From the NCBI RefSeq assembly GCF_023055435.1, contig NW_025963902.1, positions 2,539,815 through 2,603,814 on the forward strand: 64,000 nt of DNA. Reading direction: 5' to 3'. This document shows positions 1 through 48,190 of this stretch, one piece after another; the stretch's first letter is position 1, and each line of letters starts with the position of its first letter. The position numbers and the translations under genes are program-made. Source of the DNA: Haliotis rufescens. Lineage: Eukaryota. The notes beneath the pieces are model-generated. The model saw only the letters and a program-made list of their open reading frames with translations. It ran no database searches and had not been told where the DNA came from.

Positions 1-3000
1 GAGTCAAAATTTAAAAAAAGGAGTATCATCTTGAAACTCGGTAGGCGGGTCGGACAGGTCCCCCCGACCACGTTGACGTTCAAATTGTAGATTTTTAACT
101 ATTTTCACCAGGCCTTAGGGGCGATCGTAGTGTCAAAAGCATGACTTGTCACCATGGGCTGGGGTGCCAAAATTTAAAAAAAGGAGTATCGTCTTGAAAC
201 TCGGTAGGCGGGTCGGACAGGTCCCCCCCGACCACGTTGACGTTCAAATTGTAGATTTTTAACTATTTTCTCCAGGCCTTAGGGGCGATCGTAGTGTCAA
301 AAGCATGACTTGTCACCATGGGCTGGGGTGCCAAAATTTAAAAAAAGGAGTATCGTCTTGAAACTCGGTAGGCGGGTCGGACAGGTCCCCCCGACCACGT
401 TGACGTTCAAATTGTAGATTTTTAACTATTTTCTCCAGGCCTTAGGGGCGATCGTAGTGTCAAAAGCATGACTTGTCACCATGGGCTGGGGTGCCAAAAT
501 TTAAAAAAAGGAGTATCATCTTGAAACTCGGTAGGCGGGTCGGACAGGTCCCCCCGACCACGTTGACGTTCAAATTGTAGATTTTTAAACTATTTTCTCC
601 AGGCCTTAGGGGCGATCGTAGTGTCAAAAGCATGACTTGTCACCATGGGCTGGGGTGCCAAAATTTAAAAAAAGGAGCCAAAATTTAAAAAAGGAGTATC
701 ATCTTGAAACTCGGTAGGCGGGTCGGACAGGTCCCCCCGACCACGTTGACGTTCAAATTGTAGATTTTTAACTATTTTCACCAGGCCTTAGGGGCGATCG
801 TAGTGTCAAAAGCATGACTTGTCACCATGGGCTGGGGTGCCAAAATTTAAAAAAAAGGAGTATCGTCTTGAAACTCGGTAGGCGGGTCGGACAGGTCCCC
901 CCGACCACGTTGACGTTCAAATTGTAGATTTTTAACTATTTTCTCCAGGCCTTAGGGGCGATCGTAGTGTCAAAGCATGACTTGTCACCATGGCTGGGGT
1001 GCCAAAATTTAAAAAAAGGAGTATCGTCTTGAAACTCGGTAGGCGGGTCGGACAGGTCCCCCCGACCACGTTGACGTTCAAATTGTAGATTTTTAACTAT
1101 TTTCTCCAGGCCTTAGGGGCGACCGTAGTGTCAAAAGCATGACTTGTCACCATGGGCTGGGGTGCCAAAATTTAAAAAAAGGAGTATCGTCTTGAAACTC
1201 GGTAGGCGGGTCGGACAGGTCCCTCCGACCACGTTGACGTTCAAATTGTAGATTTTTAACTATTTTCTCCAGGCCTTAGGGGCGATCGTAGTGTCAAAAG
1301 CATGACTTGTCACCATGGGCTGGGGTGCCAAAATTTAAAAAAAGGAGTATCGTCTTGAAACTCGGTAGGCGGGTCGGACAGGTCCCCCCGACCACGTTGA
1401 CGTTCAAATTGTAGATTTTTAACTATTTTCTCCAGGCCTTAGGGGCGATCGTAGTGTCAAAAGCATGACTTGTCACCATGGGCTGGGGTGCCAAAATTTA
1501 AAAAAGGAGTATCGTCTTGAAACTCGGTAGGGCGGGTCGGACAGGTCCCCCCGACCACGTTGACGTTCAAATTGTAGATTTTTAACTATTTTCTCCAGGC
1601 CTTAGGGGCGATCGTAGTGTCAAAAGCATGACTTGTCACCATGGGCTGGGGTGCCAAAATTTAAAAAAAGGAGTATCGTCTTGAAACTCGGTAGGCGGGT
1701 CGGACAGGTCCCTCCGACCACGTTGACGTTCAAATTGTAGATTTTTAACTATTTTCTCCAGGCCTTAGGGGCGATCGTAGTGTCAAAAGCATGACTTATC
1801 ACCATGGGCTGGGGTGCCAAAATTTAAAAAAAGGAGTATCGTCTTGAAACTCGGTAGGCGGGTCGGACAGGTCCCCCCGACCACGTTGACGTTCAAATTG
1901 TAGATTTTTAACTATTTTCTCCAGGCCTTAGGGGCGATCGTAGTGTCAAAAGCATGACTTGTCACCATGGGCTGGGGTGCCAAAATTTAAAAAAAGGAGT
2001 ATCGTCTTGAAACTCGGTAGGCGGGTCGGACAGGTCCCCCCGACCACGTTGACGTTCAAATTGTAGATTTTTAACTATTTTCTCCAAGCCTAAGGGGCGA
2101 TCGTAGTGTCAAAAGCATGACTTGTCACCATGGGCTGGGGTGCCAACATTTAAAAAAAGGAGTATCGTCTTGAAACTCGGTAGGGCGGGTCGGACAGGTC
2201 CCCCCGACCACGTTGACGTTCAAATTGTAGATTTTTAACTATTTTCACCAGGCCTTAGGGGCGATCGTAGTGTCAAAAGCATGACTTGTCACCATGGGCT
2301 GGGGTGCCAAAATTTAAAAAAAGGAGTATCGTCTTGAAACTCGGTAGGCGGGTCGGACAGGTCCCCCCGACCACGTTGACGTTCAAATTGTAGATTTTTA
2401 ACTTTTTTCTCCAGGCCTTAGGGGCGATCGTAGTGTCAAAAGCATGACTTGTCACCATGGGCTGGGGTGCCAAAATTTAAAAAAAGGAGTATCGTCTTGA
2501 AACTCGGTAGGCGGGTCGGACAGGTCCCCCCGACCACGTTGACGTTCAAATTGTAGATTTTTAACTATTTTCTCCAGGCCTTAGGGGCGATCGTAGTGTC
2601 AAAAGCATGACTTGTCACCATGGGCTGGGGTGCCAAAATTTAAAAAAAGGAGTATCGTCTTGAAACTCGGTAGGCGGGTCGGACAGGTCCCCCCGACCAC
2701 GTTGACGTTCAAATTGTAGATTTTTAGCTATTTTCTCCAGGCCTTAGGGGCGATCGTAGTGTCAAAAGCATGACTTGTCACCATGGGCAGGGGTGCCAAA
2801 ATTTAAAAAAAGGAGTATCGTCTTGAAACTCGGTAGGCGGGTCGGACAGGTCCCCCCGACCACGTTGACGTTCAAATTGTAGATTTTTAGCTATTTTCTC
2901 CAGGCCTTAGGGGCGATCGTAGTGTCAAAAGGATGGCTTGTCACCATGGGCATGAGTGCCAAAATTTAAAAAAAGGAGTATCATCTTGAAACTCGGTAGG

Positions 3001-6000
3001 CGGGTCGGACAGGACCCCCCGACCACGTTGACGCTCAAACTGTGCATTTTTAGCGATGTTCTCCAGGCCTTAGGGTCATCATTGTGTCAAAAATATGGCT
3101 TGTCACCATGGGTATGGCTGCCAAAATTTCAAAAAAATAGAATCATTTTGAAACTCGGTTGGCGGGTCGGACAGGACCCCCGACCACGTTGACGCTCAAA
3201 CTGTGCATTTTTAGCGATGTTCTCCAGGCCTTAGGGTCATCATTGTGTCAAAAGGATGGATTGTCACCATGGGTTTGGCTGCCAAAATTTCAAAAAAAAA
3301 TAGAATCATCTTGAAACTCGGTTCGCGGGTCGGACAGGACCCCCCGACCACGTTGACGCTCAAACTGTGCATTTTTAGCGATGTTCTCCAGGCCTTAGGG
3401 TCATCATTGTGTCAAAAGGATGGCTTGTCACCATGGGTATGGCTGCCAAAATTTCAAAAAAGGAGTATCATCTTGAAACTCGGTAGGCGGGTCGGACAGG
3501 ACCCCCCGACCACGTTGACTCTCAAACTGTGCATTTTTAGCGATGTTCTCCAGGCCTTAGGGCCATCATTGTGTCAAAAGGATGGCTTGTCACCATGGGC
3601 ATGGGTGCCAAAATTTCAAAAAAGGAGTATCATCTTGAAACTCGGTAGGCGGGTCGGACAGGACCCCCCGACCACGTTGACGTTCAAATTGTAGATTTTT
3701 AACTATTTTCTCCAGGCCTTAGGGGCGATCGTAGTGTCAAAAGCATGACTTGTCACCATGGGCTGGGGTGCCAAAATTTAAAAAAAGGAGTATCGTCTTG
3801 AAACTCGGTAGGCGGGTCGGACAGGTCCCCCCGACCACGTTGACGTTCAAATTGTAGATTTTTAACTATTTTCTCCAGGCCTTAGGGGCGATCGTAGTGT
3901 CAAAAGCATGACTTGTCACCATGGGCTGGGGTGCCGAAATTTAAAAAAAGGAGTATCGTCTTGAAACTCGGTAGGCGGGTCGGACAGGTCCCCCCGACCA
4001 CGTTGACGTTCAAATTGTAGATTTTTAACTATTTTCTCCAGGCCTTAGGGGCGATCGTAGTGTCAAAAGCATGACTTGTCACCATGGGCTGGGGTGCCAA
4101 AATTTAAAAAAAGGAGTATCGTCTTGAAACTCGGTAGGCGGGTCGGACAGGTCCCCCCGACCACGTTGACGTTCAAATTGTAGATTTTTAGCTATTTTCT
4201 CCAGGCCTTAGGGGCGATCGTAGTGTCAAAAGCATGACTTGTCACCATGGGCAGGGGTGCCAAAATTTAAAAAAAGGAGTATCGTCTTGAAACTCGGTAG
4301 GCGGGTCGGACAGGTCCCCCCGACCACGTTGACGTTCAAATTGTAGATTTTTAGCTATTTTCTCCAGGCCTTAGGGGCGATCGTAGTGTCAAAAGCATGA
4401 CTTGTCACCATGGGCAGGGGTGCCAAAATTTAAAAAAAGGAGTATCGTCTTGAAACTCGGTAGGCGGGTCGGACAGGTCCCCCCCCCCCCCCCCCCCCCC
4501 CCCCCGACCACGTTGACGCTCAAACTGTGCATTTTTAGCGATGTTCTCCAGGCCTTAGGGCCATCATTGTGTCAAAAGGATGGCTTGTCACCATGGGCAT
4601 GGGTGCCAAAATTTCAAAGAAGGAGTATCATCTTGAAACTCGGTAGGCGGGTCGGACAGGATCCCCCGACCACGTTGACGCTCAAACTGTGCATTTTTAG
4701 CGATGTTCTCCAGGCCTTAGGGCCATCATTGTGTCAAAAGGATGGCTTTTCACCATGGGCATGGGTGCCAAAATTTCAAAAAAGGAGTATCATCTTGAAA
4801 CTCGGTAGGAGTTCGGACAGGACCCCCCGACCACGTTGACGCTCAAACTGTGCATTTTTAGCGATGTTCTCCAGGCCTTAGGGTCATCATTGTGTCAAAA
4901 GGATGGATTGCCACCATGGGTATGGCTGCCAAAATTTCAAAAAAATAGAATCATCTTGAAACTCGGTAGGCGGATCGGACAGGACCCCCGACCACGTTGA
5001 CGCTCAAACTGTGCATTTTTAGCGATGTTCTCCAGGCCTTAGGGCCATCATTGTGTCAAAAGGATGGCTTGTCACCATGGGCATGGGTGCCAAAATTTCA
5101 AAAAAGGAGTATCATCTTGAAACTCGGTAGGCGGGTCGGACAGGACCCCCCGACCACGTTGACGCTCAAACTGTGCATTTTTAGCGATGTTCTCCAGGCC
5201 TTAGGGTCATCATTGTGTCAAAAATATGGCTTGTCACCATGGGTATGGCTGCCAAAATTTCAAAAAAATAGAATCATTTTGAAACTCGGTTGGCGGGTCG
5301 GACAGGACCCCCGACCACGTTGACGCTCAAACTGTGCATTTTTAGCGATGTTCTCCAGGCCTTAGGGTCATCATTGTGTCAAAAGGATGGATTGTCACCA
5401 TGGGTATGGCTGCCAAAATTTCAAAAAAATAGAATCATCTTGAAACTCGGTTCGCGGGTCGGACAGGACCCCCCGACCACGTTGACGCTCAAACTGTGCA
5501 TTTTTAGCGATGTTCTCCAGGCCTTAGGGTCATCATTGTGTCAAAAGGATGGCTTGTCACCATGGGTATGGCTGCCAAAATTTCAAAAAAGGAGTATCAT
5601 CTTGAAACTCGGTAGGCGGGTCGGACAGGACCCCCCGACCACGTTGACTCTCAAACTGTGCATTTTTAGCGATGTTCTCCAGGCCTTAGGGCCATCATTG
5701 TGTCAAAAGGATGGCTTGTCACCATGGGCATGGGTGCCAAAATTTCAAAAAAGGAGTATCATCTTGAAACTCGGTAGGCGGGTCGGACAGGACCCCCCGA
5801 CCACGTTGACGCTGAAACTGTGCATTTTTAGCGATGTTCTCCAGGCCTTAGGGCCATCATTGTGTCAAAAGGATGGCTTGTCACCATGGGCATGGGTGCC
5901 AAAATTTCAAAAAAGGAGTATCATCTTGAAACTCGGTAGGCGGGTCGGACAGGACCCCCCGACCACGTTGACGCTCAAACTGTGCATTTTTAGCGATGTT

Positions 6001-7935
6001 CTCCAGGCCTTAGGGTCATCATTGTGTCAAAAGGATGGATTGTCACCATGGGTATGGCTGCCAAAATTTCAAAAAAATAGAATCATCTTGAAACTCGGTA
6101 GGCGGATCGGACAGGACCCCCCGACCACGTTGACGCTCAAACTGTGCATTTTTAGCGATGTTCTCCAGGCCTTAGGGCCATCATTGTGTCAAAAGGGTGG
6201 CTTGTCACCATGGGCATGGGTGCCAAAATTTCAAAAAAGGAGTATCATCTTGAAACTCGGTAGGCGGGTCGGACAGGACCCCCCGACCACGTTGACGCTC
6301 AAACTGTGCATTTTTAGCGATGTTCTCCAGGCCTTAGGGCCATCATTGTGTCAAAAGGATGGCTTGTCACCATGGGCATGAGTGCCAAAATTTCAAAAAA
6401 GGAGTATCATCTTGAAACTCGGTAGGCGGGTCGGACAGGACCCCCCGACCACGTTGACGCTCAAACTGTGCATTTTTAGCGATGTTCTCCAGGCCTTAGG
6501 GTCATCATTGTGTCAAAAATATGGCTTGTCACCATGGGTATGGCTGCCAAAATTTCAAAAAAATAGAATCATCTTGAAACTCGGTTGGCGGGTCGGACAG
6601 GACCCCCCGACCACGTTGACGCTCAAACTGTGCATTTTTAGCGATGTTCTCCAGGCCTTAGGGTCATCATTGTGTCAGAAGGATGGCTTGTCACCATGGA
6701 TATGGCTGCCAAAATTTCAAAAAAGGAGTATCATCTTGAAACTCGGTAGGCGGGTCGGACAGGACCCCCCGACCACGTTGACGCTCAAACTGTGCATTTT
6801 TAGCGATGTTCTCCAGGCCTTAGGGCCATCATTGTGTCAAAAGGATGGCTTGTCACCATGGGCATGGGTGTCAAAATTTCAAAAAAGGATTATCATCTTG
6901 AAACTCGGTAGGCGGGTCGGACAGGACCCCCCGACCACGTTGACGCTCAAACTGTGCATTTTTAGCGATGTTCTCCAGGCCTTTGGGTCATCATTGTGTC
7001 AAAAGGATGGCTTGTCACCATGGGTATGGCTGCCAAAATTTCAAAAAAATAGAATCATCTTGAAACTCGGTTGGCGGGTCGGACAGGACCCCCGACCACG
7101 TTGACGCTCAAACTGTGCATTTTTAGCGATGTTCTCCAGGCCTTAGGGCCATCACTGTGTCAAAAGGATGGCTTGTCACCATGGGCATGGGTGCCAAAAT
7201 TTCAAAAAAGGAGTATCATCTTGAAACTCGGTAGGCGGGTCGGACAGGACCCCCCGACCACGTTGACGCTCAAACTGTGCATTTTTAGCGATGTTCTCCA
7301 GGCCTTAGGGCCATCATTGTGTCAAAAGGATGGCTTGTCACCATGGGCATGGGTGCCAAAATTTCAAAAAAGGAGTATCATCTTGAAACTCGGTAGGCGG
7401 GTCGGACAGGACCCCCCGACCACGTTGACGCTCAAACTGTGCATTTTTAGCGATGTTCTCCAGGCCTTAGGGTCATCATTGTGTCAAAAGGATGGCTTGT
7501 CACCATGGGTATGGCTGCCAAAATTTCAAAAAAATAGAATCATCTTGAAACTCGGTAGGCGGGTCGGACAGGACCCCCGACCACGTTGACGCTCAAACTG
7601 TGCATTTTTAGCGATGTTCTCCAGGCCTTAGGGCCATCATTGTGTCAAAAGGATGGCTTGTCACCATGGGCATGGGTGCCAAAATTTCAAAAAAGGAGTA
7701 TCATCTTGAAACTCGGTAGGCGGGTCGGACAGGACCCCCCGACCACGTTGACGCTCAAACTGTGCATTTTTAGCGATGTTCTCCAGGCCTTAGGTCCATC
7801 ATTGTGTCAAAAGGATGGCTTGTCACCATGGGCATGGGTGCTAAAATTTCAAAAAAGGAGTATCATCTTGAAACTCGGTAGGCGGGTCGGACAGGACCCC
7901 CCGACCACGTTGACGCTCAAACTGTGCATTTTTAC
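1..7935. repeat. Satellite DNA array with a ~163-bp monomer and about 48 copies. It continues past the window start. Subfamily A (core 'ggtccccccgaccacgttgacgttcaaattgtagatttttaactattttctccaggccttaggggcgatcgtagtgtcaaaagcatgacttgtcaccatgggctggggtgccaaaatttaaaaaaaggagtatcgtcttgaaactcggtaggcgggtcggaca') occupies 1-2940 and 3670-4490. Subfamily B ('...gacgctcaaactgtgcatttttagcgatgttctccaggccttagggccatcattgtgtcaaaaggatggcttgtcaccatgggcatgggtgccaaaatttcaaaaaaggagtatcatcttg...') occupies 2940-3670 and 4500-7935.
   Basis: The monomer period is 163-164 bp, measured from recurring 'gccaaaattt' at 166, 330 and 493. Sub-variants B2 ('aaaatatggc...aatagaatcattttg...ggttggcgg') and B3 ('ggatggattg...ggttcgcgg') recur at 3078/5221/6508 and 3243/5386/6035. 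The block 2950-3670 is repeated at 5095-5815. Each monomer carries the palindrome ggtcggacagg(t/a)cccccgacc. The track ORFs here (363 aa and others) arise because 163 is not a multiple of 3. Confidence 0.95.
4479..4505. repeat. Expanded poly-C homopolymer of about 27 C. It replaces the C5-C7 run found at the same position in every other satellite monomer.
   Basis: The sequence reads 'caggtcccccccccccccccccccccccccccgaccacg', whereas the other monomers have 'caggtccccccgacc'. Confidence 0.9.
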
Positions 7936-8284: not shown

Positions 8285-8645
8285 AATACCGCTGTCTTAA
8301 TTAGATCGCGGTTTGAAAAAGCACTGTTTGGATAACGAAAGGCTGCTGCTGTTTTAATTAGGTCGGAGTTAGAAAAGCTCTGTTTGTTTAACGAAAGGCT
8401 GCAGCTGTATAAACTTAATTGGGGTTAGAAAAGCACTGTTTGTATAACGAAAGGCTGCCGCTGTCTTAACTAGGTCGGGGTTAGAAAAGCACTGTTTGTA
8501 TGGGGAAAGGCTGCCGCTGTCTTAACTAAATCGGGGTTAGAAAAAACACTGTTTGTATAGCGAATGACAGACGCTGTCTTAAATAAATCGGGGTTAGAAA
8601 AGCACTGGTTGTATAACGAGAGGCTGTCGCTGTCTAAACTAGAAT
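8285..8645. repeat. Minisatellite with a ~59-bp unit and about 6 copies ('cttaattagatcgcggtttgaaaaagcactgtttggataacgaaaggctgctgctgt' and variants).
   Basis: 'gtcttaa(c/t)ta...cggggttagaaaagcactgtttgtat..cgaaaggctgc.gctgt' recurs at 8293, 8352, 8411, 8469, 8528 and 8585. Confidence 0.85.
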
Positions 8646-8989: not shown

Positions 8990-10540
8990 ATTAGTGTGAA
9001 AGGATGGTTATATCCCATTAGTTAGACATCCCATTAGTTAGACGTCCCAATTGTTAGACATGTTTATTTAGGCAAAGAGGGAATATACCTACAGGTGTAA
9101 TGGATCAGTCCTAATTAGATTAAAGTACTGGGTAGGGAAAGGGGACTCACAGTTTAGGGAGTATATATGTTATAATTTCGTTTAATTAACCTAAAAATTA
9201 CCTTACTCTCAGCACAGGTTCAATAGGCATGAGATTAACTATGTAAACTATGGAGTAGCTTAATTGTCTTACTGTATGATCAGTTGAAGGGGTTGAGTTT
9301 AGATTATCTACTCATAATAAATGATCTTGGGGTACGTATCGTTATCAGTATCGATATGGCTGGTTTAAGGAAAGTAGAGTTTTCACCTCTCGGCGTGGAA
9401 GTGAGCAGTTGATAATAGATGGATATATTTGCAACAGAAACCGCGAGAGGCAAACCTGCACACATTGGAGATGTGTCGTCAAGACGTGCAATGGGAAATG
9501 TACGACTGTCGGTGACTTTCTTTGAAATCAGTCGGAACATAACCATCCGCCTGAAGATGAAACCAGAGTGAACTTTGTCAGCAATCTTCGTAAAAGAGCT
9601 CGAGAAGAAACCACACAGATGCAGGCATTGTACGAGGAGCAAGTCACCCAAGTAGATGAAGCCAACATGCCAGCGATGCCATCATTTCAGAGCGTGAAAA
9701 GTGCACTTTACAGGTAAATATCATCCCGTATTTTTTACTTGGTTAGAATTTACTTCTTTTTTTTAGGTCCCACATAACTTGTTTCGCTCTTAAACATGTC
9801 AAGTTAATGAAATCATGATCAATATTTCATGTAACATATGTGTAACTGTTCCTTTGCTCTTGTTCAGGTGTTACATTCCAGCGTTACCCAGGTCGCGGTC
9901 AGCAGTAGACATTGAAGACAAATGGTCAGAGACAACAGATGGACGTCCCTTTCTACTGTTCAGCGACGGCGGCGATGACAAGATCCTGGCTTTCTCCACT
10001 GCAGAACAGATACAAGCCCTCCAGGAAGCTGACACCCTTTATATGGATGGTACCTTCACAGCATGTCCAGGTTTATGGGATCAAGTATACATCATTCATG
10101 CCAGAGTTGGTCCCATCACCTTCCCTCTAGTGTTCGCCCTTTTGCCAGATCGCCAAGCAACAACCTATGGCCGGCTTTTTCGACAACTGAAGACAGAAGT
10201 TCAAGAGCGACTCAACAGACCTGTCACCTAGCACACTTGCTTCGTCTGGGATAAATAAACTGTAAAAGTTATTAAATGTAAAGTGTACATTACCAAAAAC
10301 TGTCACAAAGTGTTGTTACAAACTGTATAAAATTTATCAAATGTAAAGTGTCATTAAATGTTAAGTATAATATTAAAGTATGTATTTAAAGCTGCTTTGC
10401 TTTGTTTGTCAGATCTTACCTGGACTATTCCATTTTAAAGTCTGAGGTAACAAGCATAAGGATTAGTGTGCACTCAACCGTTTAAAGTGTTGTTATAAGC
10501 TGTCTAACTATTGGGACGTCTAACTAATGGGAGGACACCG
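8990..10540 (+). mobile_element. Internally deleted and decayed MULE (Mutator-like) DNA transposon. It is bounded by ~30-bp inverted repeats and encodes a FLYWCH zinc finger plus part of a MULE transposase domain.
   Basis: The left repeat 'cccattagttagacgtcccaattgttagaca' (9027-9058) is the reverse complement of the right repeat 'tgtctaactattgggacgtctaactaatggga' (10503-10535). The internal ORFs carry FLYWCH and MULE motifs (see next feature). Confidence 0.6.
9367..10231 (+). pseudogene. Transposase remnant in two exons, 9367-9713 and 9868-10231, separated by a GT-AG intron. The N-terminal FLYWCH zinc finger (KESRVFTSRRGSEQLIIDGYIFATETARGKPAHWRCVVKTCNGKCTTVGDFL*NQSEHNHPP) contains an in-frame TGA at 9523-9525. 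The C-terminal part carries a MULE core (LYMDGTFTACPGLWDQVYIIHARVGPITFPLVFALLPDRQATTYGRLFRQL) and is truncated after ~120 aa.
   Basis: The FLYWCH signature (F..S.RG..L..DGY.F....W.C..C..C......H.HPP) and the MULE signature (DGTF....YQL.TIH......P.AFAL...K....Y..LF..L) were recognised by eye. Donor 'tacag|gtaaat' is at 9713/9714 and acceptor 'tgttcag|gtg' at 9867/9868, with the reading frame continuous across the splice. The premature stop and the missing C-terminal two thirds make it a pseudogene. Confidence 0.55.
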
Positions 10541-13500
10541 AAAGGATTACTAAGTTTGTCATCCAGTATAATGCACTTCCACGATTAGCATAATTAGAAC
10601 GGAGTTTGTAATTAGGTACATCCGGACTCCAGTTAATCAAGGCAGCTACATCAGTTGAGAGTGTGAGCAACTGGAGAAGAGGCGAGCAACTCAATGTGAT
10701 TAATGAATTAGTGGAATTTTAATAAATAAACGAACGCCTGTCGCAAAAATGCATTCGAACATTGAACACGCACAATCGCAGATTTCTATGGTACATTTGA
10801 GGGTGAACGTGAACAAAGCCGTGCAGGTTGCCTAACAGCGATTTGTCTTCAGAACACACAGTGAGCTCAGGTGAGTTTATTAATGATGATATTTTTATTC
10901 ATTCATAGATATGGCGATCATGAGCGCTGACACTATATGTGTTCGCAATAGAACATTTGGAAGACTAGACACATATTGATTCACTAAATGACTACATCAA
11001 ATCCAGTATTTGTTTAATGCAACAAGTTTAAAGCATTCAAAATTGTGCATTATTATAAAATACAATGTGTGTCGTTTCGTCCCCCATGTAAAATACATTA
11101 ATTATTTGTTTTAAATATAATTTAATATTAAGTGCAAAACCTAATCTTAAAATGAAAGGAATTAATATTTATGACTTTGGGAATAATATTTCAGTCAGAT
11201 TCTGATATTGACGAGTTAAAAAGGAAATCCCTATGATTAATTGCCTTAGAAGTCTTAGATACCTTTCTGGTGTCCACCGCCGTAAACCATACTCACTCAC
11301 TCAGTTAAATAACTCCTTTCACATAAATCGTTAGAAGTTATGAACAAGCATATAATGCCCACATTTGGGATAATTGTACCAAGAACAAGAATAATCCTAG
11401 AATGTTTCCACTAAGATTCATTCCGGACGCTGAAAAATTGCCGATGAGACGTTAAATTTTAACTTACTCACTCAATACGGACTATACGGACTATTTGTGG
11501 GGCGATAAGGGGTACAGGCCACGAGAAAATATATAGAGAAACTAACACAGCCATTACACCTTTTTACAGGATGGAAAACATCTTTGCTGTTAGTAATTAC
11601 ATTTATAGAAATCAAGCAATATACAGGCTATATGTTGTAGAACAGAATGCTTTGCCAAGTTATTCCTACCTGATACCATTAATAATTGGAATAGTCATCT
11701 GATATAGAGGATTATTAAACTTGGACAGTGTGACTTATATACAGTTAAGCCATGATACCAGATTTTGTCACATAATCCTTTATCGCCTCGGACTCGGTTG
11801 TAGTGATTTAAACTTCCATCGGCTTAAAAGACAATATATTAAGAAACGATTCGCCTTTCTATTCTAAAAGCTAAGTGAGTTTATATCCAGTGGTTTATGG
11901 GAAACAATTTGTCAATTTGGTATTTTGAAATCGGTCCATGTAAATCCTACGTTCGGGTGAATTTGCACTAATGTTATAACTTAAGAATTAATTCATCTTT
12001 TAAGACACGTTTTAAGTATTAAACAGTTAAATAGCTTTTTTTAGTAATTGAACACCTTTCCATCGACCGCACCATACTGTTGACCAATCGTTTTTCATGT
12101 ATTCTACGTCAAATAAGATCAGAACACGTGTATAATTACAACATCCCCAGGATACCAATAACAACGAAATGTACAAATTAACAAACATGACCAACATTAT
12201 TATTTCATGATAATGTAGGTGTCATGCATGTAATTATAGCTATATAAACATATGTTTAATTATTCAGTTTGTGTGAAGTCGGTCATAAATACAAGAAACA
12301 GTTGATTCTGAAATTCTTTAATCATGTACTTTTAAGTATATTTTCCCAATATTATGTTATCCCCAAAAGGGCAATTATATTCATGTTATATTTATCAGTC
12401 AATTTTTTAATACGAATTACGTAACATTTATGCTACTTTGATTTTATAAGACCAATGTTGTTGTTACAGATTCAGGGACCGACTAGGTTCATTACATGTC
12501 ATAAAAGTGCCGGGACATAATGTGGTGGCAATACATTCTCTAATTAACACCTGTCACAAAGGGACGGGCCATTTGGGTTTGTCCTCGGGGAATGTGTTAT
12601 GCAATTTGTGTATTCACGAAATAACATTCAACAAGTCGGGTGATTAAGGATTGATGCATTTGTACTTCATATAAATAAATGAATTACATTATTTTCTTAA
12701 TCGTGTGCGAAATACGCATAATGTCGGAAAGCGCAAGTTAAATCCCCAAATACTGACTTCGTTCCTAAATAAATCACAACCCTCACTTATAATTGTATCA
12801 CTGCATCACTTTAAATTTTAATGATGTAAATCACGTATCTGTCACTTTTTAATGTAGAATACGTCAGTCACTCAACCAGTTCCACTATTATTTTCCCAAA
12901 AGATCAAAGATTAAAAACAGTTATCAAGATTTAATTTCCATATATTAGATATATTTAATCTTAACATTGAAACATCTTCATGTATTATTCTGTATTGAAT
13001 GACATTAGATATACGCTCCTATACCGCCGCTGGTGTCTTAATTTGCGAGAATTAAACATTTAGTTTGCATCCAACCATGCGCGTCCCAAATTATACAGCG
13101 TCAAGCTTTCAGAGCTCCAAATAAGTTTTCCAAAGTAGAAATTAAGCAAAATGAATGTTTATCAAGTTCCTTTTGCTATAACATATGCATGCTGTTATGG
13201 TTTTTCAAAAAAAATTCTTCGTTCTCTCTGTTGTTACATTATACAGTTAATTGAAAACTGTAATCTCAAACATATCTAATGCTACTTCAACACTTTATCA
13301 TATACTTAGCAGTTGAATATTCTGTAAAATTGAAATTAATCCTCTATTAGTTTACAGTGACGATTCTTGCAGGCTATATAATGCAGGCACGGCCCGTTAT
13401 GTATCATTCAATCTTTATCTTTCTCACTTTCTTATAAAGGCATAATGATCGATAATCTCTTCTGTTGCAGTGTGAAATGTTAATTTATTGTAAGTAAGGC

Positions 13501-19299: not shown

Positions 19300-20935
19300 C
19301 CGACACCACTGGGAACGAGGCACCAGTAAGAACTAGACATCATGAGGGACGAGGACCAGTAGGTACTAGATACCACTAGGGACAAGACACCAGTTGGTAC
19401 TAGACACTACTAGGGACGAGGCACCAGTAGGTACTACACACCACTAGGGACGAGGCACCAGTAGGTACTACACACCACTAGGGACGAGACAACAGTAGGT
19501 ACTAGACACCACTAGAGACAAGGCGACAGTAGGTACTAAACACTACTAGGGACGAGACAACAAGAGGTACTAGACACCACTAGAGACAAGGCGACAGTAG
19601 GTACTAAACACTACTAGGGACGAGACAACAGTAGGTACTAGACACCACTAGAGACAAGGCGACAGTAGGTACTAAACACTACTAGGGACGAGACAACAGT
19701 AGGTACTAGACACCACTAGGGACCAGGCACCAGAAGGGACTAGACACCACTAGAGACAAGGCATCAGTAGGTACTACACACCACTAGGGACAAGACACCA
19801 GTAGGTACTAGACACCACTAGGGACGAGACAACAGTAGGTACTAGACACCACTAGGGACCAGGCACCAGTAGGTACTAGACACCACTAGAGACAAGGCAC
19901 CAGTAGGTACTAGATACCACTAGGGACGAGACACCAGTAGGTACTAGACACCACTAGGGACCAGGCACCAGTAGGTACTTGACACCACTAGGGTCAAGAC
20001 ACCAGTAGGAACTAGACACTACTAGGTACGAGGCCCCAGCATGTTCTAGACACCACTAGGGACGAGGCACTAGTAGGTATTAGGGATGAGACAACAGTAG
20101 GTACTAGACACCACTAGGGACCAGGCACCAGTAGGTACTAGACACCACTAGGGACCAGGCACCAGTAGGTACTAGACACCACAAGGGACGAGACACGAGT
20201 AGGTACTAGACACCACTAGGGACCAGGCACCAGTAGGTACTAGACACCACTAGAGACAAGGCACCAGTAGGTACTAAACACCACTAGGGACGAGACAACA
20301 GTAGGTACTAGACACCACTAGGGACCAGGCACCAGTAGGTACTAGACACCACTAGGGACTAGGCACCAGTAGGTACTAGACACCACTAGGGACCAGGCAC
20401 CAGTAGGTACTAGACACCACTAGAGACAAGGCACCAGTAGGTACTAGACACCACTAGGGACGAGACACCAGTAGGTACTAGACACCACTAGGGACCAGGC
20501 ACCAGTAGGTACTTGACACCACTAGGGTCAAGACACCAGTAGGAACTAGACACTACTAGGTACGAGGCACCAGTAAGTACTAGACACTACTAGGTACGAG
20601 GCACCAGTAGGTACTAGACACTACTAGGGACGAGGCACCAGTAGGTACTAGACACTACTAGGGACGAGGCACCAGTAGGTACTAGACACCACTAGGGACG
20701 AGGCACCAGTAGGTACTAGACACCACAAGGGATTAGGCGCCAGTAGGTACTAGACAACAAAAGGGACTAGGCACCAGTAAGTACTAGACACCACAAGGGA
20801 CGAGGCACCAGTAGGTACTAGACACCACAAGGGACGAGGCACCAGTAGGTACTAGACACCACTAGAGACGAAGCACCAGTAGGTACTAAACACCACTAGG
20901 GACGAGGCACCAGACGGTACTAAATTCCACTAAGT
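19300..20935. repeat. Minisatellite with a 34-bp unit 'tagggacgaggcaccagtaggtactagacaccac' and about 48 copies.
   Basis: The regular 34-bp periodicity was counted directly. Variants include gacaaggc, ccaggcac and gagacaac. Confidence 0.9.
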
Positions 20936-22872: not shown

Positions 22873-23750
22873 TATGTTCATGATCCAGACCCACCGTGAT
22901 GGTTGTTCATGATCAAAGCCTACCATGAGGGTTGTTCATGATCCAAGCCTACCATGATGGTCGTTTGTGATCCAAGCCTACAGTGATGGTCGTTCATTAT
23001 CCAGGCCTACCGTGATGGTTGTTCATGATCCAAGCCTGCCGTGATGGTTGTTCATGATCCAAGCCTACCATGATGGTTGTTTGTGATCCAAGCCTACAGT
23101 GATGGTCGTTCATTATCCAGGCCTAACATGATGGTTGTTCATGATCCAAGCCTGCCGTGATGGTTGTTCATGATCCAAGCCTACCATGACGGTTGTTCAT
23201 GATCCACACCCACTGTGATGGTTGTTCATGATCCACACCCAACCTGATGGTTGTTCATGATCAACACCCAACGTGATGGTTGTTTATGATCCACACCCAC
23301 TGTGATGGTTGTTCATGATCCACACCCAACGTGATGGTTGTTCTAGATCCACACCCAACGTGATGGTTGTTCATGATCCAATCATACCATGATGGTTGTT
23401 CATGATCCACACCCACCATGATGGTTGTTCATGATCCAAGCCTACCATGATGGTTGTTCATGATCAAATCCTACCGTGATGGTCGTTCATGATCCACACC
23501 CACCGTGATGGTTGTTCATGATCCAAGCCTACCGTGATGGTTGTTCATGATCCAAGCCTACCATGATGGTTGTTCATGATCCACACCCACAGTGATGGTT
23601 GTTCATGATCCAAGCCTACCATGATGGTCGTTCATGATCCAAGCCTACCGTGATTGATGATCATGATCCACACCCACCGCGATGGTTGTTCTTGATCAAT
23701 ATCCCAAGATTGTTGTTCATGATCCATACCAATCGTGATGTGGTGGTCGG
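22866..23750. repeat. Minisatellite with a 29-bp unit 'atgatccaagcctaccgtgatggttgttc' and about 30 copies. It starts directly at the right TIR of the Tc1 element.
   Basis: The period was counted directly. Variants include cacacccac/aagcctacc and atgatgg/gtgatgg. Confidence 0.9.
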
Positions 23751-25140
23751 TGTCCTTCATGACGGGTATTCATTGTGATCCAGATCATGGGACGGTGGGT
23801 GTCCACCATAACGGGTGTTCATAGTGATCCGTATCTGGGACGGTGGGTGTCCACCATGTCGGGTGTTCATAGTGATCCCTATCTGGGACGGTGGGTGTCC
23901 ACCATAACGGGTGTTCATAGTGATCCCTATCTGGGTCGGTGGGTGTCCACCATAACGGGTGTTCATAGTGATCCCTATCTGGGACGGTGGGTGTTCATTG
24001 TGATCCCTATCTGGGAGTGTGGGTGTCCATCATGATGGGTGTTCATTGTGATCCCTATCTGGGACGGTGGGTGTCCACCATAACGGGTGTTCATAGTGAT
24101 CCCTATCTGGGACGGTGGATGTCCACCATAACGGGTGTTTATAGTGATCCCTATCTGGGACAGTGGGTGTCCACCATAACGGGTGTTCATAGTGATCCCT
24201 ATCTGGGACGGTGGGTGTCCACCATGTCGGGCGTTCATAGTGATCCCTATCTGGGACGGTGGGTGTTCATTGTGATCCCTATCTGGGACGGTGGGTGTCC
24301 ACCATAACGGGTGTTCATAGTGATCCCTATCTGGGACGGTGGGTGTTCACAGTGATCCCTATCAGGGTCGATGTCCACCATAACAGGTGTTCATAGTGAT
24401 CCCTATCTGGGACGGTGGGTGTTCATAGTGATCCCTATCTGGGACGGTTGGTGTCCACCATAACGGGTGTTCATAGTGATCCCTATCTGGGACGGTGGGT
24501 GTTCATTGTGATCCCTGTCTGGGACGGTGGGTGTCCACCAAAACGGGTGTTCATAGTGATCCCTATCTGGGACGGTGGGTGTTCATTGTGATCCCTATCT
24601 GGGACAGTGGGTGTCCACCATAACGGGTGTTCATAGTGATCCCTATCTGGGACGGTGGGTGTTCATTGTGATCCCTATCTGGGACGGTGGGTGTCCACCA
24701 TGTCGGGTGTTCATAGTGATCCCTATCTGGGATGATTGGAACTCATTGTGATCCCTCTCTGGGACGATGGGTGTTCATTGTGATCCCTATCTGGGACGGT
24801 GGGTGTCCATCATGACAGGTTTCCACAGTGATCCCTATCTGGGAAGGTGGGTGTCCATCATGACGGGTTTCCACAGTGATCCCTATCTGGGACGGTGTAT
24901 GTCAGTCATGATGGGTGTTCATTGTGATCCCTGTCTGGGATGATGGGTGTTCATTGTGATCCCTTATCTCGGACAGTGGGTGTCAGTCCTGGTGGGTGTT
25001 CACAGTGATCCCTATCTGGCATGGTGGGTGTCCATTGTGATCCCTATCTGGGATGATTGGTGTTCATTGTGATCCCTATCTGGGAAGATGGGTGTTCATT
25101 GTGACCCCTTTCTGAGACGGTGGGTGTCCATCATAACGGG
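23750..25140. repeat. Minisatellite with a ~48-bp unit 'ccctatctgggacggtgggtgtccaccataacgggtgttcatagtgat' and about 29 copies. Some units are shortened to ~32 bp.
   Basis: The recurring 'gtgatccctatctggga' anchor is visible throughout. ORFs 23757-24307 are repeat artefacts. Confidence 0.85.
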
Positions 25141-26139
25141 AGTTTGTCAGAACTATATAGTTATCTAATGACTCGGCAAAACCAAACACATAACAACTGG
25201 AGGAATGATGTGAACATATTTACTTTTTGATATTACCAGTGTATGAAAATAGGGAAAAGTTGTAATATAAATACAAAATAACTAGGCTGTGACAAAAATA
25301 TATGCATACATTGGAGACTGGTGACACTAAAACATCTTAACAATGTGGCGTCAGAACGTCTATAAATGATATAAATAACGGTAACAATAATGATGAACTT
25401 GGTCAGAAAATTCTGCTACACATCACAAGATGGCAGACACATCACTTCACACACCAATAAATAATAGTATACAACAGTATATCTAACACATACATACATA
25501 AACAGTCCCATCTCAGGGAGCAAGGAACATGCCAATTCCAATCCTGACTGGGCACTAAATCATGGAGCATTGTCATAAACATAACAAGCAAACAGTATAT
25601 ATCTATTATACATATACAAGTCTTTGATAGGCATTTGAGGTCCTTCCATGTGTCAGACACCCAGTTGTCAGACACTGGAATATTTTGTAACTGCCAAACA
25701 CCCCTTTACTCATATTGATATGACACAGATCTCTTTGCAGTTTTAATGGCTTGGTTAAACTGTAACTATATTTGTTTTCACTGAAGTTTGTGAGATAGTG
25801 CAATTTCTGGATGCAGCAGGTTACATTCCAACTTTGGCTTGAATGACTGACAGTACACTGACATTGATGTGGAAGTAAATATTACTATTTCATAATGATT
25901 GATGGTCATTTTATATATTATGTATATGTTATGTATTATAGTTCATGTATAAAGTGTAAAACTTCTTTAACTGAGCAATATATTCCAAAGTATAAAGTAA
26001 TAATATATCAAGAATAAATATTGATTTGCATATAGTTTGTTTTCTTTTGTACCAGTTGTCAGACAGTTGTTGACGACAGGACCAGTCTGTTTGGATTTAA
26101 GGGAATATATCACACACCTGATGTGCCCTCAACTATAAA

Positions 26140-26585
26140 AGTTGTTTTAGGGTGTCTGACAAATGGGGTGTCTGACAAATGGAGTGTCTAACAAATGGGG
26201 TGTCTGACAAATGGGGTGTCTGACAAATGGGGTGTCTGACAAATGAGGTGTCTGACAAATGGGGTGTCTGACAAATGGGTAGTCTGACAAATGAGGTGTC
26301 TGACAAATGGGGTGTCTGACAAATGAGGTGTCTGACAAATGGGGTGTCTGACAAATGAGGTGTCTGATAAATGAGGTGTCTGAGAAATGGGGTGTCTGAC
26401 AAATGGGGTGTCTGACAAATGGGGTGTCTGACAAATGGGGTGTCTGACAAATGAGGTGTCTGACAAATGGGGTGTCTGACAAGTGAGGTGTCTGACAAAT
26501 TGGGTAGTCTGACAAATGAGGTGTCTGACAAATGAGGTGTCTGACAAATGGGTAGTCTGACAAATGGGGTATCTGACAAATGGGA
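26140..26585. repeat. Minisatellite with a 16-bp unit 'ggggtgtctgacaaat' and about 27 copies.
   Basis: Direct count. The three overlapping minus-strand ORFs at 26133-26619 are artefacts. Confidence 0.9.
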
Positions 26586-27565
26586 GATGAACAGGCATAT
26601 ATATTAACATGATGAACATGATTAACTCAATACAATTAATCAGTATTCACCTGATGGAGGGCTGAAGTAGCTCTAAAACATTGCTACAAACAATAATAAA
26701 GTCGTTATCCATAACAGTGTCATATCATCCTGTACATACACAGCTGACGGCTCTCATTAAGTACACTTTGCCCACATCTACACAACAGTATAGCTCCTTC
26801 ATAAATCATAATTCAACTGAAGAACAAATCTGGAATAAAACAGTATTACTAAAACACATTCATGGGATTTTATCAAAAAGCAGTAAAACTTCTTCACAGC
26901 CATCAGCTACAAATATCATGTATGAACAGTAACAAAACAACGGAAGCATTGGATCCTGCTTCTGTTACAGACATTACCGAGACTTGGATGGCTACCAGTG
27001 GATGGCTTGTCTACTTATCACTATCGTAAACTTAGAGACATGGAAGTCTTAATAAGAGAGCACCAAAAAGATTTTGGGCATGGGTCTGAGAACAATCTCT
27101 TTTTATCCTGCCGGTGACAAACTATTTATTTCCTAAGCACCATCAAACAATCCATTCATTTTCACTATTAACACAAAAAATGACGTTTGGATATTTTCCA
27201 CAAAACAAACTTTTCCTTTTTTTCACTACTGCCACCAACCTTTTCATTTGGGGCATATTTATGGACTTTTCATTTTAAAAATCTTGCCACCCAACACCCT
27301 CTGAAATTAAATGGATGCTCCCTTAACTAAAACATTTTTTGACTCACTTTCATTAATATTTTTTTTTTTAAATCTAGACCATTTTTAAGATGACTGACCA
27401 CATGTTGTTTTACCCCACAGTCAGCAATATCACCATTATATCACCGCAGCATGTAAATCATCTAGTCTGGGCGGGGCATACTAGTGGTTGATAGCATGAG
27501 CATAGCATAGCATGATGACCCATAACCACTAGGGTCACACATTGTAATCACATATTTATCATAAA

Positions 27566-27959: not shown

Positions 27960-28520
27960 TCTCTCTGTGGAGAAGTCAAGACGCTCATGGTGTTCCCCCC
28001 AGTGTAATGAACGGTGCTGTTGCAGCAAGTCAAGACGTTCATGGTGTTCCCCCCAGTGTAATGAACGGTGCTGTTGCAGCAAGTCAAGACGTTCATGGTG
28101 TTCCCCCCAGTGCAATGAACAGTGCTGATGCAGCAAGTTAAGATGTTCATGGTGTTCCCCATGCAATGACATGTGCACACTTAGCAAGTGAAGACGTTCA
28201 TGGTGTTCCCCCGTGCAATGACAGGTGCACTCTTAGCAAGTGAAGACGTTCATGGCGTTCCCCCGTGCAATGACAGGTGCACTCTTAGCAAGTCAAGACG
28301 TTCATGGCGTTCTCCGCTCAATGACAGGTGCACACTTAGCAAGTGAAGACGTTCATGGTGTTCCCCCGTGCCATGAACGGTGCTCATGCAGCAAGTCAAG
28401 ATGTTCATTGTGTTCCCCCATGCAATGACAGGTGCACTCTTAGCAAGTGGAGACGTTCATGGTGTTCCCCCCGGTGCAGTGAACAGTGCTCATGCAGCAA
28501 GTGAAGACGTTCTTGGTGCC
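27960..28520. repeat. Minisatellite with a ~52-60-bp unit 'gtcaagacgttcatggtgttccccccagtgtaatgaacggtgctgttgcagcaa' and about 10 copies in two unit variants.
   Basis: 'aagacgttcatggtgttcccc' recurs at 27976, 28036, 28095, 28150, 28196, 28250, 28300, 28340, 28395 and 28452. Confidence 0.85.
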
Positions 28521-29230
28521 AATGGGTAAAATATGATTTGCAACTTGTAGACAAATTTCTGACAGGTTTGTCCATAGTAATATTTACACTTCCGTTTACC
28601 CTCATGTGGCTTGACATTGAATCCATCCTCCATGAGATCATTTTCCAGACATTTCATAAACACTTCTTCGTCAGCTTGTGTTTCCCATGGCCCAATACTA
28701 ACATGAGCTGATTCCACGATGCATCCGTGGAAGGGGTTAAAGTTCTGAGCTTTCGCCTTGAACTCTGTTCTGAAAGCACATATCAATACTTCACCGATTC
28801 TGTTAATCGATGCATTAGCAACTGCTGCTCGGATGACGTCATGCTTGGCATCTTGGTACCCTGGAAACTGGGATCGATGGGATTTTTTTACGATAATAGA
28901 AGCAATTTCAGGTCGAAGCTGTAGCTTTTCAACCATGGAGTGTAGGCCATAGTACTCGGCATCTCTGTAGACAGCGGTGGATAAGTCGAACGGCGGAACT
29001 GTCCCGTAGCGGAGGTATTCCAGAATGTGGCCAAACACGGCACCGTTGGTGTCCAGGAAGTAGTGGCCATCTTTGTCTTGGTCGACCTCGTGACGGCCAC
29101 TGAACATGGCCGCTAGCATGGAGTCCGAGTACTTCAAAAGTGTGGAGAGTCGTGTCTGGTACACCACTCCGCCAACATTCAGTGATATGATTGGTGGAAA
29201 CTGCCCCAGTTTTACAACATTGTCTCGCGG
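28490..29230 (-). CDS. KCTD-family protein with a BTB/T1 domain, closest to the KCTD6/11/21 clade. This is the main coding exon: PRDNVVKLGQFPPIISLNVGGVVYQTRLSTLLKYSDSMLAAMFSGRHEVDQDKDGHYFLDTNGAVFGHILEYLRYGTVPPFDL…KFVYKLQIIFYPLAPRTSSLAA*. The initiator exon lies upstream and was not found.
   Basis: The T1/BTB_2 signature LNVGG..Y.T.L.TL...PDSML.AMFSG......D..G.YF.D..G..F..IL.YLR.G is present. A 3' splice acceptor 'tatttatttttcag|ccgcgagac' sits at 29230/29231 with no in-frame ATG. The stop is at 28487-28489. The track shows 'M' at 29167, but the codon there is GTG. Confidence 0.65.
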   Translation of the reverse strand, partial: PRDNVVKLGQFPPIISLNVGGVVYQTRLSTLLKYSDSMLAAMFSGRHEVDQDKDGHYFLDTNGAVFGHILEYLRYGTVPPFDLSTAVYRDAEYYGLHSMVEKLQLRPEIASIIVKKSHRSQFPGYQDAKHDVIRAAVANASINRIGEVLICAFRTEFKAKAQNFNPFHGCIVESAHVSIGPWETQADEEVFMKCLENDLMEDGFNVKPHEGKRKCKYYYGQTCQKFVYKLQIIFYPLAPRTSSLAA

Positions 29231-44229: not shown

Positions 44230-45500
44230 ATGACCTGTAAATCTTAATGTCTTGTAGAGGTCAAGTAAATGTCCTGTATGTAACCTGTAAATGTCCTGTA
44301 TATGATCTGTAAATGTCCTGTATATAACCTGTAAATGTCCTGTATATGACCTGTAAATGTCACATAAATGTTCTTAAATTACCTGTAAATGTCCTGTATA
44401 TAACTGTAAATGTCCTGTATATGACCTGTAAATGTCCTGTATATAACCTGTACATGTCCTGTAGATGACCTGTAAATGTCCTGTATATAACCTGTAAATG
44501 TCCTGTATATAACCTGTAAATGTCCTGTATATAACCTGTAAATGTCCTGTATATGACCTGTAAATGACCTGTAAATGACCTGTAAATGTCCTGTAAATCT
44601 TAATGTCTTGTAGAGGTCACGTAAATGACCTGTAAATGTCCTGTATATAACCTGTACATGTCCTGTATAGGACCTGTAAATGTCCTGTATATAACCTGTA
44701 AATGTCCTGTAAATGACCTGTAAATGTCCTGTATATAACCTGTAAATGTCCTGTATATAACCTGTAAATGTCCTGTATATAACCTGTAAATGTCCTGTAT
44801 ATGACCTGTTAATGTCCTGTAAATCTTAATGTCTTGTAGAGGTCACGTAAATGTCCTTACATGACCTGTACGTGTCCTGTATATGACCTGTAAATGTCCT
44901 GTATATAACCTGTAAATGTCCTGTACATGTTCTGTATATAACCTGTAAATGTCCTGTATATGACCTGTAAATGTCCTGTATATGACCTGTAAATGTCCTG
45001 TATATAACCTGTAAATGTCCTGTATATGACCTGTAAATGTCCTGTAAATGACCTGTATATGACCTGTAAATGTCCTGTATATAACCTGTAAATGTCCTGT
45101 ACGTGTCCTGTATATAACCTGTAAATGTCCTGTATATAACCTGTAAATGTCCTGTAAATGACCTGTATATAACCTGTAAATGTCCTGCATATAACCTGTA
45201 AATGTCCTGTATATAACCTGTAAATGTCCTGTATATGACCTGTAAATGTCCTGTATATAACCTGTAAATGTCCTGTAAATGACCTGTATATAACCTGTAA
45301 ATGTCCTGCATATAACCTGTAAATGTCCTGTATATAACCTGTGAATGTCCTGTAAATGACCTGTATATAACCTGTAAATGTCCTGTAAATGTCCTGTATA
45401 TAACCTGTAAATGTCCTGCATATAACCTGTAAATGTCCTGTATATAACCTGTAAATGTCCTGTAAATGACCTGTAAATGTCCTGCACATGTCCTGTAAAT
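44230..45500. repeat. Minisatellite with a 22-bp unit made of two 11-bp halves, 'cctgtaaatgt' and 'cctgtatataa', and about 58 copies. It lies in the ASL intron and abuts the donor of exon 45516-45575.
   Basis: Direct count. The three minus-strand ORFs at 44826-45626 are artefacts, except their first ~20 codons, which are the real ASL exon. Confidence 0.9.
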
Positions 45501-45515
45501 GTAGATGTAAATTAC

Positions 45516-45575
45516 CTGCAGGTCCTTGTTATAGGTGCTGGGAATCCCCTTCAGGGACATCATGAACCCCGAACA
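45516..45575 (-). CDS. ASL: ASL exon: [20 protein letters not shown]
   Basis: Human: [20 protein letters not shown]. Acceptor 'catgttgcag|tgttcg', donor 'ctgcag|gtaatt'. 60 nt, phase 0 at both ends. Confidence 0.9.
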
Positions 45576-46039
45576 CTGCAACATGACGTACAATACATCT
45601 GTCATGGGACTAAGGGAGTAATACAATCATCCCGAACACTGCAACATCACGTACAATACATCTGTCATGGGACTCATCACACAAGTAAGGGATTTAACCC
45701 CATGCTGCTTTCTAATTACCCTTTATTGATTCTATTAGGACTCGTTGTTCAAGTGCTACACTGGCAGAACAAGGGAGTAATTCAACCATCCCTATTTATC
45801 ACAGTTTAATTTGACTCATTTAAAAAACCAATCACTTCAAAAACGACTTTTCCTAAAGTAACCCATAAATTGAAGTAGTCATGAGAGTGATGAGTGCATG
45901 TTGTTTATGCTACAGTCAGCAATATTCCAGCTATATCATGGTGGCCTGTAATAGTTGAGTCTAGGCCAGGCAGACCAGTGACTGCAAGCAGACTTCTGGG
46001 GACTTACAGTACTCCATAATCACTGCAGGCACAATGACA

Positions 46040-48190
<2,151 letters not shown>

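Follow-up and report, generated by a model that had tools for sequence, protein, structure and literature searches.

Evidence for a dead, internally deleted FLYWCH-MULE DNA transposon and its amplified subfamily in Haliotis

Results

Anatomy and limits of the element

At positions 9006-10539 of the window (the whole stretch of DNA that was analyzed, 64,000 nucleotides of the Haliotis rufescens genome, contig NW_025963902.1, positions 2,539,815 to 2,603,814 of the forward strand) lies a 1534-bp element in which terminal inverted repeats (TIRs) enclose non-coding regions and a broken two-exon open reading frame (ORF) (Table 1). We consider it very probable that this element is a dead copy of a non-autonomous, internally deleted FLYWCH-MULE (Mutator-like element with a DDE, or Asp-Asp-Glu, transposase) DNA transposon of Haliotis. 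This identification draws on features that are observed directly: the anatomy of the element, its homology to other copies, a deletion junction shared with them, target-site duplications (TSDs) that differ between them, and the lesions of the ORF. It agrees in kind with a first-pass annotation of the locus, made from the sequence alone, which had proposed a decayed FLYWCH and MULE DNA transposon and with which the TIRs, the homologues and the lesions all concur.

The limits of the element were set by comparison with a paralogue from Haliotis cracherodii (L003, contig JAJLRC010000011.1), which is 94.3% identical to window positions 9006-10540 and shows no similarity beyond them, the homology starting exactly at 9006. 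A perfect 8-bp direct repeat, GAAAGGAT, abuts the element on both sides. These sharp borders, together with the flanking repeats, thus place the element at 9006-10539, so that the span of 8990-10540 given by the first-pass annotation contained the element with inexact limits and left the 8-bp TSD unnoticed. The TSD of L003 is a different 8-mer, GTAGAAAA, and a more distant relative, L002, carries ACCGCGTC on either side, such that TSDs of 8 bp are found in three independent insertions. MULE TSDs measure 8-11 bp (PMC6446971; PMC5225508), Muta1 produces TSDs of 8-9 bp experimentally (PMC5225508), and those of Phantom elements, in which FLYWCH may or may not be present, measure 8-10 bp (PMC6446971; PMC5225508). 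The TSD length shared by the window copy, L003 and L002 therefore falls within the MULE range and matches that of Muta1.

The inverted-repeat arms at 9029-9060 and 10501-10532 are 32 nt each, 97% complementary and 1440 nt apart, confirming the earlier observation of inverted repeats about 1.45 kb apart around the ORF. They are composed of a 16-nt unit, ATCCCATTAGTTAGAC, present three times on the left and twice on the right; the 15-mer core of this unit has seven matches in the window when up to two mismatches are allowed, against 0.16 expected, and five of the seven make up the two ends. The left terminus reads 5′-GGTTATATCCCATTAG... and the right end, read inward, 5′-GGTGTCCTCCCATTAG...; when compared, the two termini (GGTTATATCCC... 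and GGTGTCCTCCC...) pair as the TIRs of a MULE, although they are short relative to those of plant MULEs. In L003 and L004, which are independent copies (L004 being a sister copy from H. cracherodii), the same TIRs accompany the ORF, and related versions bracket an intact 457-aa ORF in L005 and a near-full-length ORF in L002. The exact 31-nt TIR pattern had no match when JGI metagenome contigs were scanned for it.

Table 1. Features of the transposon copy, its sister copy L004 and the rest of the window (positions are those of the window unless stated otherwise; a slash marks a junction)
Feature	Position	Strand	Basis or remark
Left TSD, 8 bp, GAAAGGAT	8998-9005	.	Identical to 10540-10547
Left TIR: terminus GGTTATA, then three tandem 16-nt units (TCCCATTAGTTAGACA type)	9006-9061	+	Repeat search; like design in L003, L005, L002 and L006
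5′ non-coding region, presumed promoter and 5′ UTR (untranslated region)	9062-9356	+	~95% identity to L003
Exon 1: ATG, FLYWCH zinc finger, linker; frame broken twice	9357-9713	+	PF04500 match; 91% identity to P0001/P0021 composite
1-nt deletion, frameshift after codon 8-9 (MAGLRKVE / frame change)	9380-9382	+	L003 alignment; ATG versus FLYWCH frame
Nonsense TGA; TGC (Cys) in L003	9523-9525	+	Between Cys pair and His pair of FLYWCH finger
GT-AG intron, 154 nt, phase 2: AG/GTAAAT ... polypyrimidine tract ... TTCAG/G	9714-9867	+	GT-AG rule
Exon 2: pre-core region and N-terminal ~60% of Pfam MULE domain	9868-10231	+	90% identity to composite residues 113-237
Internal deletion junction, 1-nt microhomology (...CCTAGCA/CACTTGC..., ~10233)	10232-10234	+	Comparison with L004 and composite
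Remnant of last six codons and stop (HLLRLG*), out of frame with exon 2	10234-10254	+	Matches P0021 C terminus ...ACGHLLRLG
3′ non-coding region	10255-10500	+	96-98% identity to L003 and L004
Right TIR: two 16-nt units and terminus; minus-strand reading GGTGTCCTCCCATTAGTTAGAC...	10501-10539	-	Inverted-repeat search, end alignment
Right TSD, 8 bp, GAAAGGAT	10540-10547	.	Identical to 8998-9005
Sister copy L004 (H. cracherodii JAJLRC010000007.1)	L004 6052-7277		Abrupt 5′ homology loss
163-bp satellite, ~48 copies, 326-bp higher-order period	5-7934		90-94% identity between copies
56/113-bp tandem repeat block, ~6 copies, ~350 bp upstream of transposon	8289-8643
Candidate MITE-like (miniature inverted-repeat transposable element) relative, 956 bp, without ORF	25637-26592		Like TIR design
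KCTD7-like BTB/POZ gene, large exon	28490-29167	-	Pfam BTB_2, KCTD_C; 97% H. rufescens, 93% H. rubra protein identity
Reverse-transcriptase fragment	33217-33618	+	Pfam RVT_1, E=1.7e-10

A FLYWCH finger followed by the start of a MULE core

Read in the frame starting at 9358, exon 1 encodes a FLYWCH finger, as the first-pass annotation had claimed: in a Pfam scan it matches PF04500 with E=1e-7 and 32.4 bits (cut-off 23.6 bits) over profile positions 3-62 of 62, the domain being split by the TGA at 9523-9525. The frame of exon 2, from 9868, reads ...YMDGTFTACPGLWDQVYIIHARVGPITFPLVFALLPDRQATTYGRLF... and ends at a TAG at 10229-10231, retaining the first conserved Asp (MDGTF, codons at ~10044-10058). 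A protein search with the joined exons returned 25 matches, with E values down to 1e-147, nearly all of them from abalone (H. rufescens, H. cracherodii, H. rubra and H. asinina) and one from Patella. Exon 2 is 57-90% identical to relatives that match the MULE profile PF10551 at E~1e-12, among which P0004, P0005, P0014, P0015 and P0021 score between 6e-10 and 2.5e-12 with a domain starting at MDGTF; P0004 and P0005 span both exons and carry PF04500 as well as PF10551.

MULE transposases have a DDE catalytic triad. An alignment of 13 members of the family displays three invariant or near-invariant blocks, MDGTF, (Q)TDFE and RTNNxLE, and by analogy MDGTF, TDFE and NNxLE would hold the D, D and E of this triad, of which the window copy retains MDGTF only. 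A comparison of the full-length relative P0039 with the sequences of the PDB found no solved relative at E<=1. Because of its homology to proteins that match PF10551, its TSD length, its TIRs and its FLYWCH N terminus, assignment of the window element to the MULE superfamily appears well supported.

An intron specific to the subfamily

The two exons are separated by a predicted GT-AG intron, which the first-pass annotation had recognized, with the donor AG/GTAAAT and the acceptor TTCCTTTGCTCTTGTTCAG/G. Both splice signals are present in the window copy, L003 and L004, and removal of the intron in silico from L004 yields the conserved YRHRRKTIP (YRHRRKTIPALP), the spliced sequence reading ...SALYRHRRKTIPALP... 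and matching the intronless P0004 and P0005. The intronless counterparts encode this stretch contiguously (YRHRQKTIP in L002 and YRHRKTTVP in L001), and splicing across the intron is annotated in the gene models P0001 and P0008. Four relatives that are 56-65% identical at the protein level, L001, L002, L005 and L006, have contiguous ORFs without the intron. Its presence in the window copy, L003 and L004, set against these four intronless relatives, therefore makes the intron a subfamily trait, which most simply would have been gained within the window subfamily. Of the two origins that had been offered for the intron, the first, an element family that carries introns, thus accords with its occurrence in three copies and with the conserved frame left by its removal.

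We also considered that the 154 nt might be a nested insertion, a small transposable element or filler DNA that interrupts the ORF and is spliced out of the gene models only because predictors favour open frames, which we regard as unlikely. Such an insertion would account for the intronless state of most relatives (L001, L002, L005 and L006), and CAGG does occur at both borders (TACAGG/TAAAT ... TTCAGG/TG), as a short duplication made upon insertion possibly would. However, the donor AG/GTAAAT fits the consensus, a long pyrimidine tract precedes the CAG/G of the acceptor, both signals have been kept in three diverged copies, and the excision restores the frame exactly, as YRHRRKTIP in L004 illustrates. 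Moreover, a search within the window found no TIRs and no internal repeats in the intron, and no second copy of it. An insertion that is precisely spliced would in any case amount to intron gain, so that the two readings largely converge.

One deletion junction in many dispersed copies

To describe what has been lost from the transposase, we used a composite reference of 454 aa, in which P0001 provides the N terminus and P0021 the C-terminal part. In the window copy, composite residues 1-242 are followed directly by the last six codons and the stop. Residues 243-448 (206 codons) have been lost, and with them the TDFE and NNxLE motifs, the putative second Asp and the Glu of the triad, while the 3′ end and the right TIR are retained. 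The first-pass annotation had described a loss of the C-terminal two thirds; the lesion is instead an internal deletion of ~45% of the protein with an intact 3′ end. Sequence of the same subfamily that extends past the deletion exists in H. rufescens (P0021 and P0038).

The junction is identical in the window copy and in L003, whose TSDs differ. Furthermore, the junction peptide, NRPLSPSTLASSGINKL, stands at the end of at least 13 gene models annotated in H. rufescens, which lie on different chromosomes or scaffolds, with the pattern NRPLS(P/H)STLA(S/P)SGINKL across these loci. A loss of 9 nt right after the acceptor (HRRKT to RY or CY), found in the window copy, L003 and the junction-bearing H. 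rufescens models, is a further marker of this lineage of deletion derivatives. A single junction that recurs in dispersed copies, each time with another TSD, is what a derivative mobilized after its deletion would leave, and the compared sequences point to an amplified non-autonomous derivative whose deletion is common to the whole subfamily and not private to the window copy.

Abortive gap repair after excision yields independent deletions in sister copies. The third copy, L004, has its own internal deletion (residues 267-354) and is cut on its 5′ side, with no left TIR within 6 kb upstream; the gene model annotated on it, P0008, has a first exon that is unrelated. Another gene model, P0003, is a chimera of 290 kb.

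Two H. rufescens copies, P0001 and P0027, keep an intact ORF of 252 aa, which raises a slim possibility that the amplified derivative is more than junk. By analogy with KP, the 252-aa product could act as a trans-dominant repressor of the family that binds the 16-nt TIR units, or it could be a FLYWCH protein at an early stage of domestication. If so, this product would consist of a FLYWCH finger and a catalytically dead N-terminal stub, the subfamily-specific intron might help its expression, and the window copy would still be dead.

Decay of the window copy

In the window copy, the deletion near 9380 parts the ATG (9357, MAGLRKVE) from the FLYWCH frame, the TGA at 9523-9525 interrupts the finger at what is a Cys or Arg codon in relatives, and the TAG at 10229 has arisen through the loss of 2 nt near 10220-10222. 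All three lesions are private to this copy when compared with L003 and P0001. The TGA had been reported by the first-pass annotation, and the TGC of L003 bears it out as a nonsense change; the two frameshifts had been overlooked. L003 has lesions of its own: 12 nt are missing from the finger, 9 nt have been inserted and a TAA is present, such that both copies contain stop codons. Substitutions between the two are evenly spread, with a divergence of 4.9% in the 5′ non-coding region, 3.2% in exon 1, 5.2% in the intron, 3.6% in exon 2 and 2.3% in the 3′ non-coding region. The ratio of nonsynonymous to synonymous differences (pN/pS) is 0.68, based on only 20 differences, a value that cannot separate weak constraint from neutrality. 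These observations are consistent with neutral or near-neutral decay.

They also bear on the reading of the locus as a host gene, a domesticated FLYWCH gene derived from a transposase, or a pseudogene, with the intron as part of a host-gene structure. In RefSeq and GenBank, close relatives are indeed entered as 'uncharacterized protein' genes and modelled with two spliced exons, the intact 252-aa ORF is retained in P0001 and P0027, and FLYWCH host genes of MULE origin have been described (PMC1702500; PMC10027918). Yet a perfect 8-bp TSD and TIRs stand at the exact limits of homology, at least 13 copies are dispersed over different chromosomes, the TSD of the paralogue differs, three lesions break the ORF of the window copy, and its divergence from L003 is near-neutral. 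We thus hold a host gene to be very improbable here, this reading being largely refuted for the window copy, and with it goes the second origin offered for the intron by the first-pass annotation, a copy derived from a domesticated gene, which the TSDs, the TIRs, the multiple copies and the three ORF-breaking lesions contradict.

Full-length relatives and the design of the TIRs

An intact member of the family was found in L005, a 2419-nt contig from a public sequencing run, which holds a 1987-bp element with an intronless ORF of 457 aa. The contig begins exactly at the left terminus of this element, whose left end is GGTTACCTCCCATAAGTCAGACACGCCACTAGTCAGACACC; the right end is an inverted copy of the left, and the TIR consists of GGTTACCTCCCATAAGTCAGACA followed by a second 16-nt unit. 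A second intact 457-aa member, with clear TIRs, is present in L006 (JGI 3300029811, 68-2357), where the 8-nt flanks do not match (GGTACACA versus ATGTCTCC), a mismatch that may stem from a metagenome assembly artefact or from decay.

An alignment of the ends of the window copy, L003, L004, L005, L002 and L006 reveals a common design, in which GGT is followed by 4-6 nt and by two or three 16-nt units, the sequence of the units being specific to each subfamily (CCCATTAGTTAGAC, CCCATAAGTCAGAC, CCCAAACCCCTACA and CCATTTCTCATAC). Because period and position are fixed while the sequence is subfamily-specific, the units are predicted to be transposase binding sites that the FLYWCH finger would recognize. 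A conserved TIR design with differing units would fit co-evolution with this finger.

Full-length members of ~457 aa are widespread, being found in Gigantopelta, H. rubra, bivalves, Nucella, a horsehair worm, a mite and rotifers. An exhaustive search with P0039, an intact relative, shows the family to be very large, with 17,176 cluster representatives matched at E<=1e-3, of which 1,102 also pass E<=1e-30. The microsporidian Dictyocoela muelleri has an annotated family member as well, P0119 (38% identity, PF10551). This patchy distribution (microsporidian, horsehair worm, mite and rotifers) could reflect horizontal transfer or contamination.

Surroundings of the element

The transposon lies just downstream of the 7.9-kb array of the 163-bp satellite, which yields long spurious ORFs, and of the 56-bp repeat block. 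Elsewhere in the window, the candidate MITE-like relative has two plus-strand units at its left end (GGTCCT TCCATGTGTCAGACAC CCAGTTGTCAGACAC). At its right end, the 16-nt unit CCCATTTGTCAGACAC, identical to the TIR unit of the transposon at 13 of 16 positions, forms an array of 27 copies (26150-26584, minus strand). The 8-mers that flank this candidate, AGGCATTT (25629-25636) and AGGCATAT (26593-26600), agree at seven of eight positions. This arrangement suggests a subterminal repeat that has grown into a minisatellite. The reverse-transcriptase fragment is probably a decayed non-LTR (long terminal repeat) retrotransposon. Distinct minisatellite arrays are strikingly dense, occupying 19302-20922, 22875-25131, 44265-45518, 46037-48088, 49008-50256 and 55885-56486, with periods of 17/34, 29, 32/48/80, 11/22, 32, 61 and 73 nt and up to ~100 copies. 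The window thus appears to be a repeat-rich, gene-poor region.

Discussion

The features of the window element can be accommodated in the following model. The ancestor would have been an element of ~2.0-2.2 kb, with TIRs of ~40 nt made of a GGT terminus and tandem 16-nt units, and with an ORF of ~457 aa encoding an N-terminal FLYWCH finger and a MULE core (MDGTF, TDFE, NNxLE), which in the ancestor of the window subfamily only would have been interrupted by one spliceosomal intron of ~154 nt. Residues 243-448 may then have been removed by abortive gap repair after an excision. Full-length relatives could have mobilized the deleted element, which had kept both TIRs, in trans by cut-and-paste transposition; an 8-bp TSD would have been generated at each new insertion, and the derivative would in this way have been dispersed to many loci. 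Neutral decay following insertion would account for the frameshift at ~9380, the TGA at 9523-9525 and the 2-nt deletion near 10221. The window copy cannot encode a transposase and is at most a passive substrate, should a compatible transposase still be expressed. Since the middle of the transposase gene was lost before the element was copied to many places, we view it as a routine repeat and not as a host gene.

Several observations pull in the other direction. Neither exon 2 nor the joined exons matched PF10551 at E<=1 in the Pfam scan, and the same is true of P0001, an intact truncated relative, because the deletion has left only ~60 of the 99 positions of the profile. For the window copy, the MULE call is therefore by homology only. 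Accordingly, the MULE core that the first-pass annotation had placed in exon 2 failed the direct profile comparison, and it is its homologues, matching at ~1e-12, that uphold it. Among the loci retrieved, no full-length autonomous copy had identical TIRs: L005 and L002, the full-length elements recovered, show 56-65% identity and TIR units that are related but different, and the nearest C-terminal half of the same subfamily is that of P0021 of H. rufescens. Moreover, TSDs of 8 bp are a hallmark of hAT elements, although no other feature of the window element suggests hAT.

Both this TSD length and the failure of exon 2 alone to match PF10551 would be explained if the element belonged to another superfamily with 8-bp TSDs, such as hAT, and if the resemblance of exon 2 to MULEs were spurious. 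We give almost no credence to this reading: full-length relatives, whose identity over the same residues is 57-65%, match PF10551 at ~1e-12, their other Pfam matches are weak and below the curated cut-offs (e.g., DDE_Tnp_ISL3, E=0.006), Pfam scans of the window ORF and of the full-length relatives returned no hAT family, MULE TSDs cover 8-11 bp with Muta1 making TSDs of 8 bp, and a FLYWCH N terminus is known from MULEs (PMC1702500).

Taken as an internally deleted FLYWCH-MULE, the element resembles the Phantom/Muta clade of animal MULEs (Marquez & Pritham 2010; Aedes aegypti Muta1; Dupeyron et al. 2019 group 20, PMC6446971). Like the window family, this clade has a single transposase ORF, a possible N-terminal FLYWCH, TSDs of 8-10 bp, comparatively short TIRs, DDE cut-and-paste transposition and deletion derivatives that are mobilized in trans. 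The window family differs by its TIRs of ~40 nt made of tandem 16-nt units and by its short transposase of ~457 aa, and the window subfamily by an intron that its nearest relatives lack. We thus call the window element Phantom/Muta-like by general features only (FLYWCH, 8-bp TSD and animal host). MULE-Mollusca (group 19) and MULE-Cg (group 15) share the host phylum and a single-ORF MULE transposase (Dupeyron et al. 2019, PMC6446971); compared by description, they have no zinc finger listed and for the most part lack defined TIRs and TSDs, whereas the window element has FLYWCH, TIRs and an 8-bp TSD. In its life history, the window element parallels maize Mu1/dMuDR relative to MuDR, Ds relative to Ac, and KP relative to the P element, in all of which the TIRs are kept and the middle of the transposase is lost. 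As in Mu1/dMuDR, Ds and KP, one junction recurs in many dispersed copies with differing TSDs, and sister copies such as L004 carry independent deletions.

For a mollusc genome, such an element is ordinary. The subfamily-specific intron, the amplified truncated ORF, which some copies keep intact, and the modular TIRs are of mild specialist interest. The exact limits, the TIR structure and the TSD length that we describe are usable for masking the repeat family, and a set of abalone gene models annotated as 'uncharacterized protein' are identified as copies of one internally deleted MULE.

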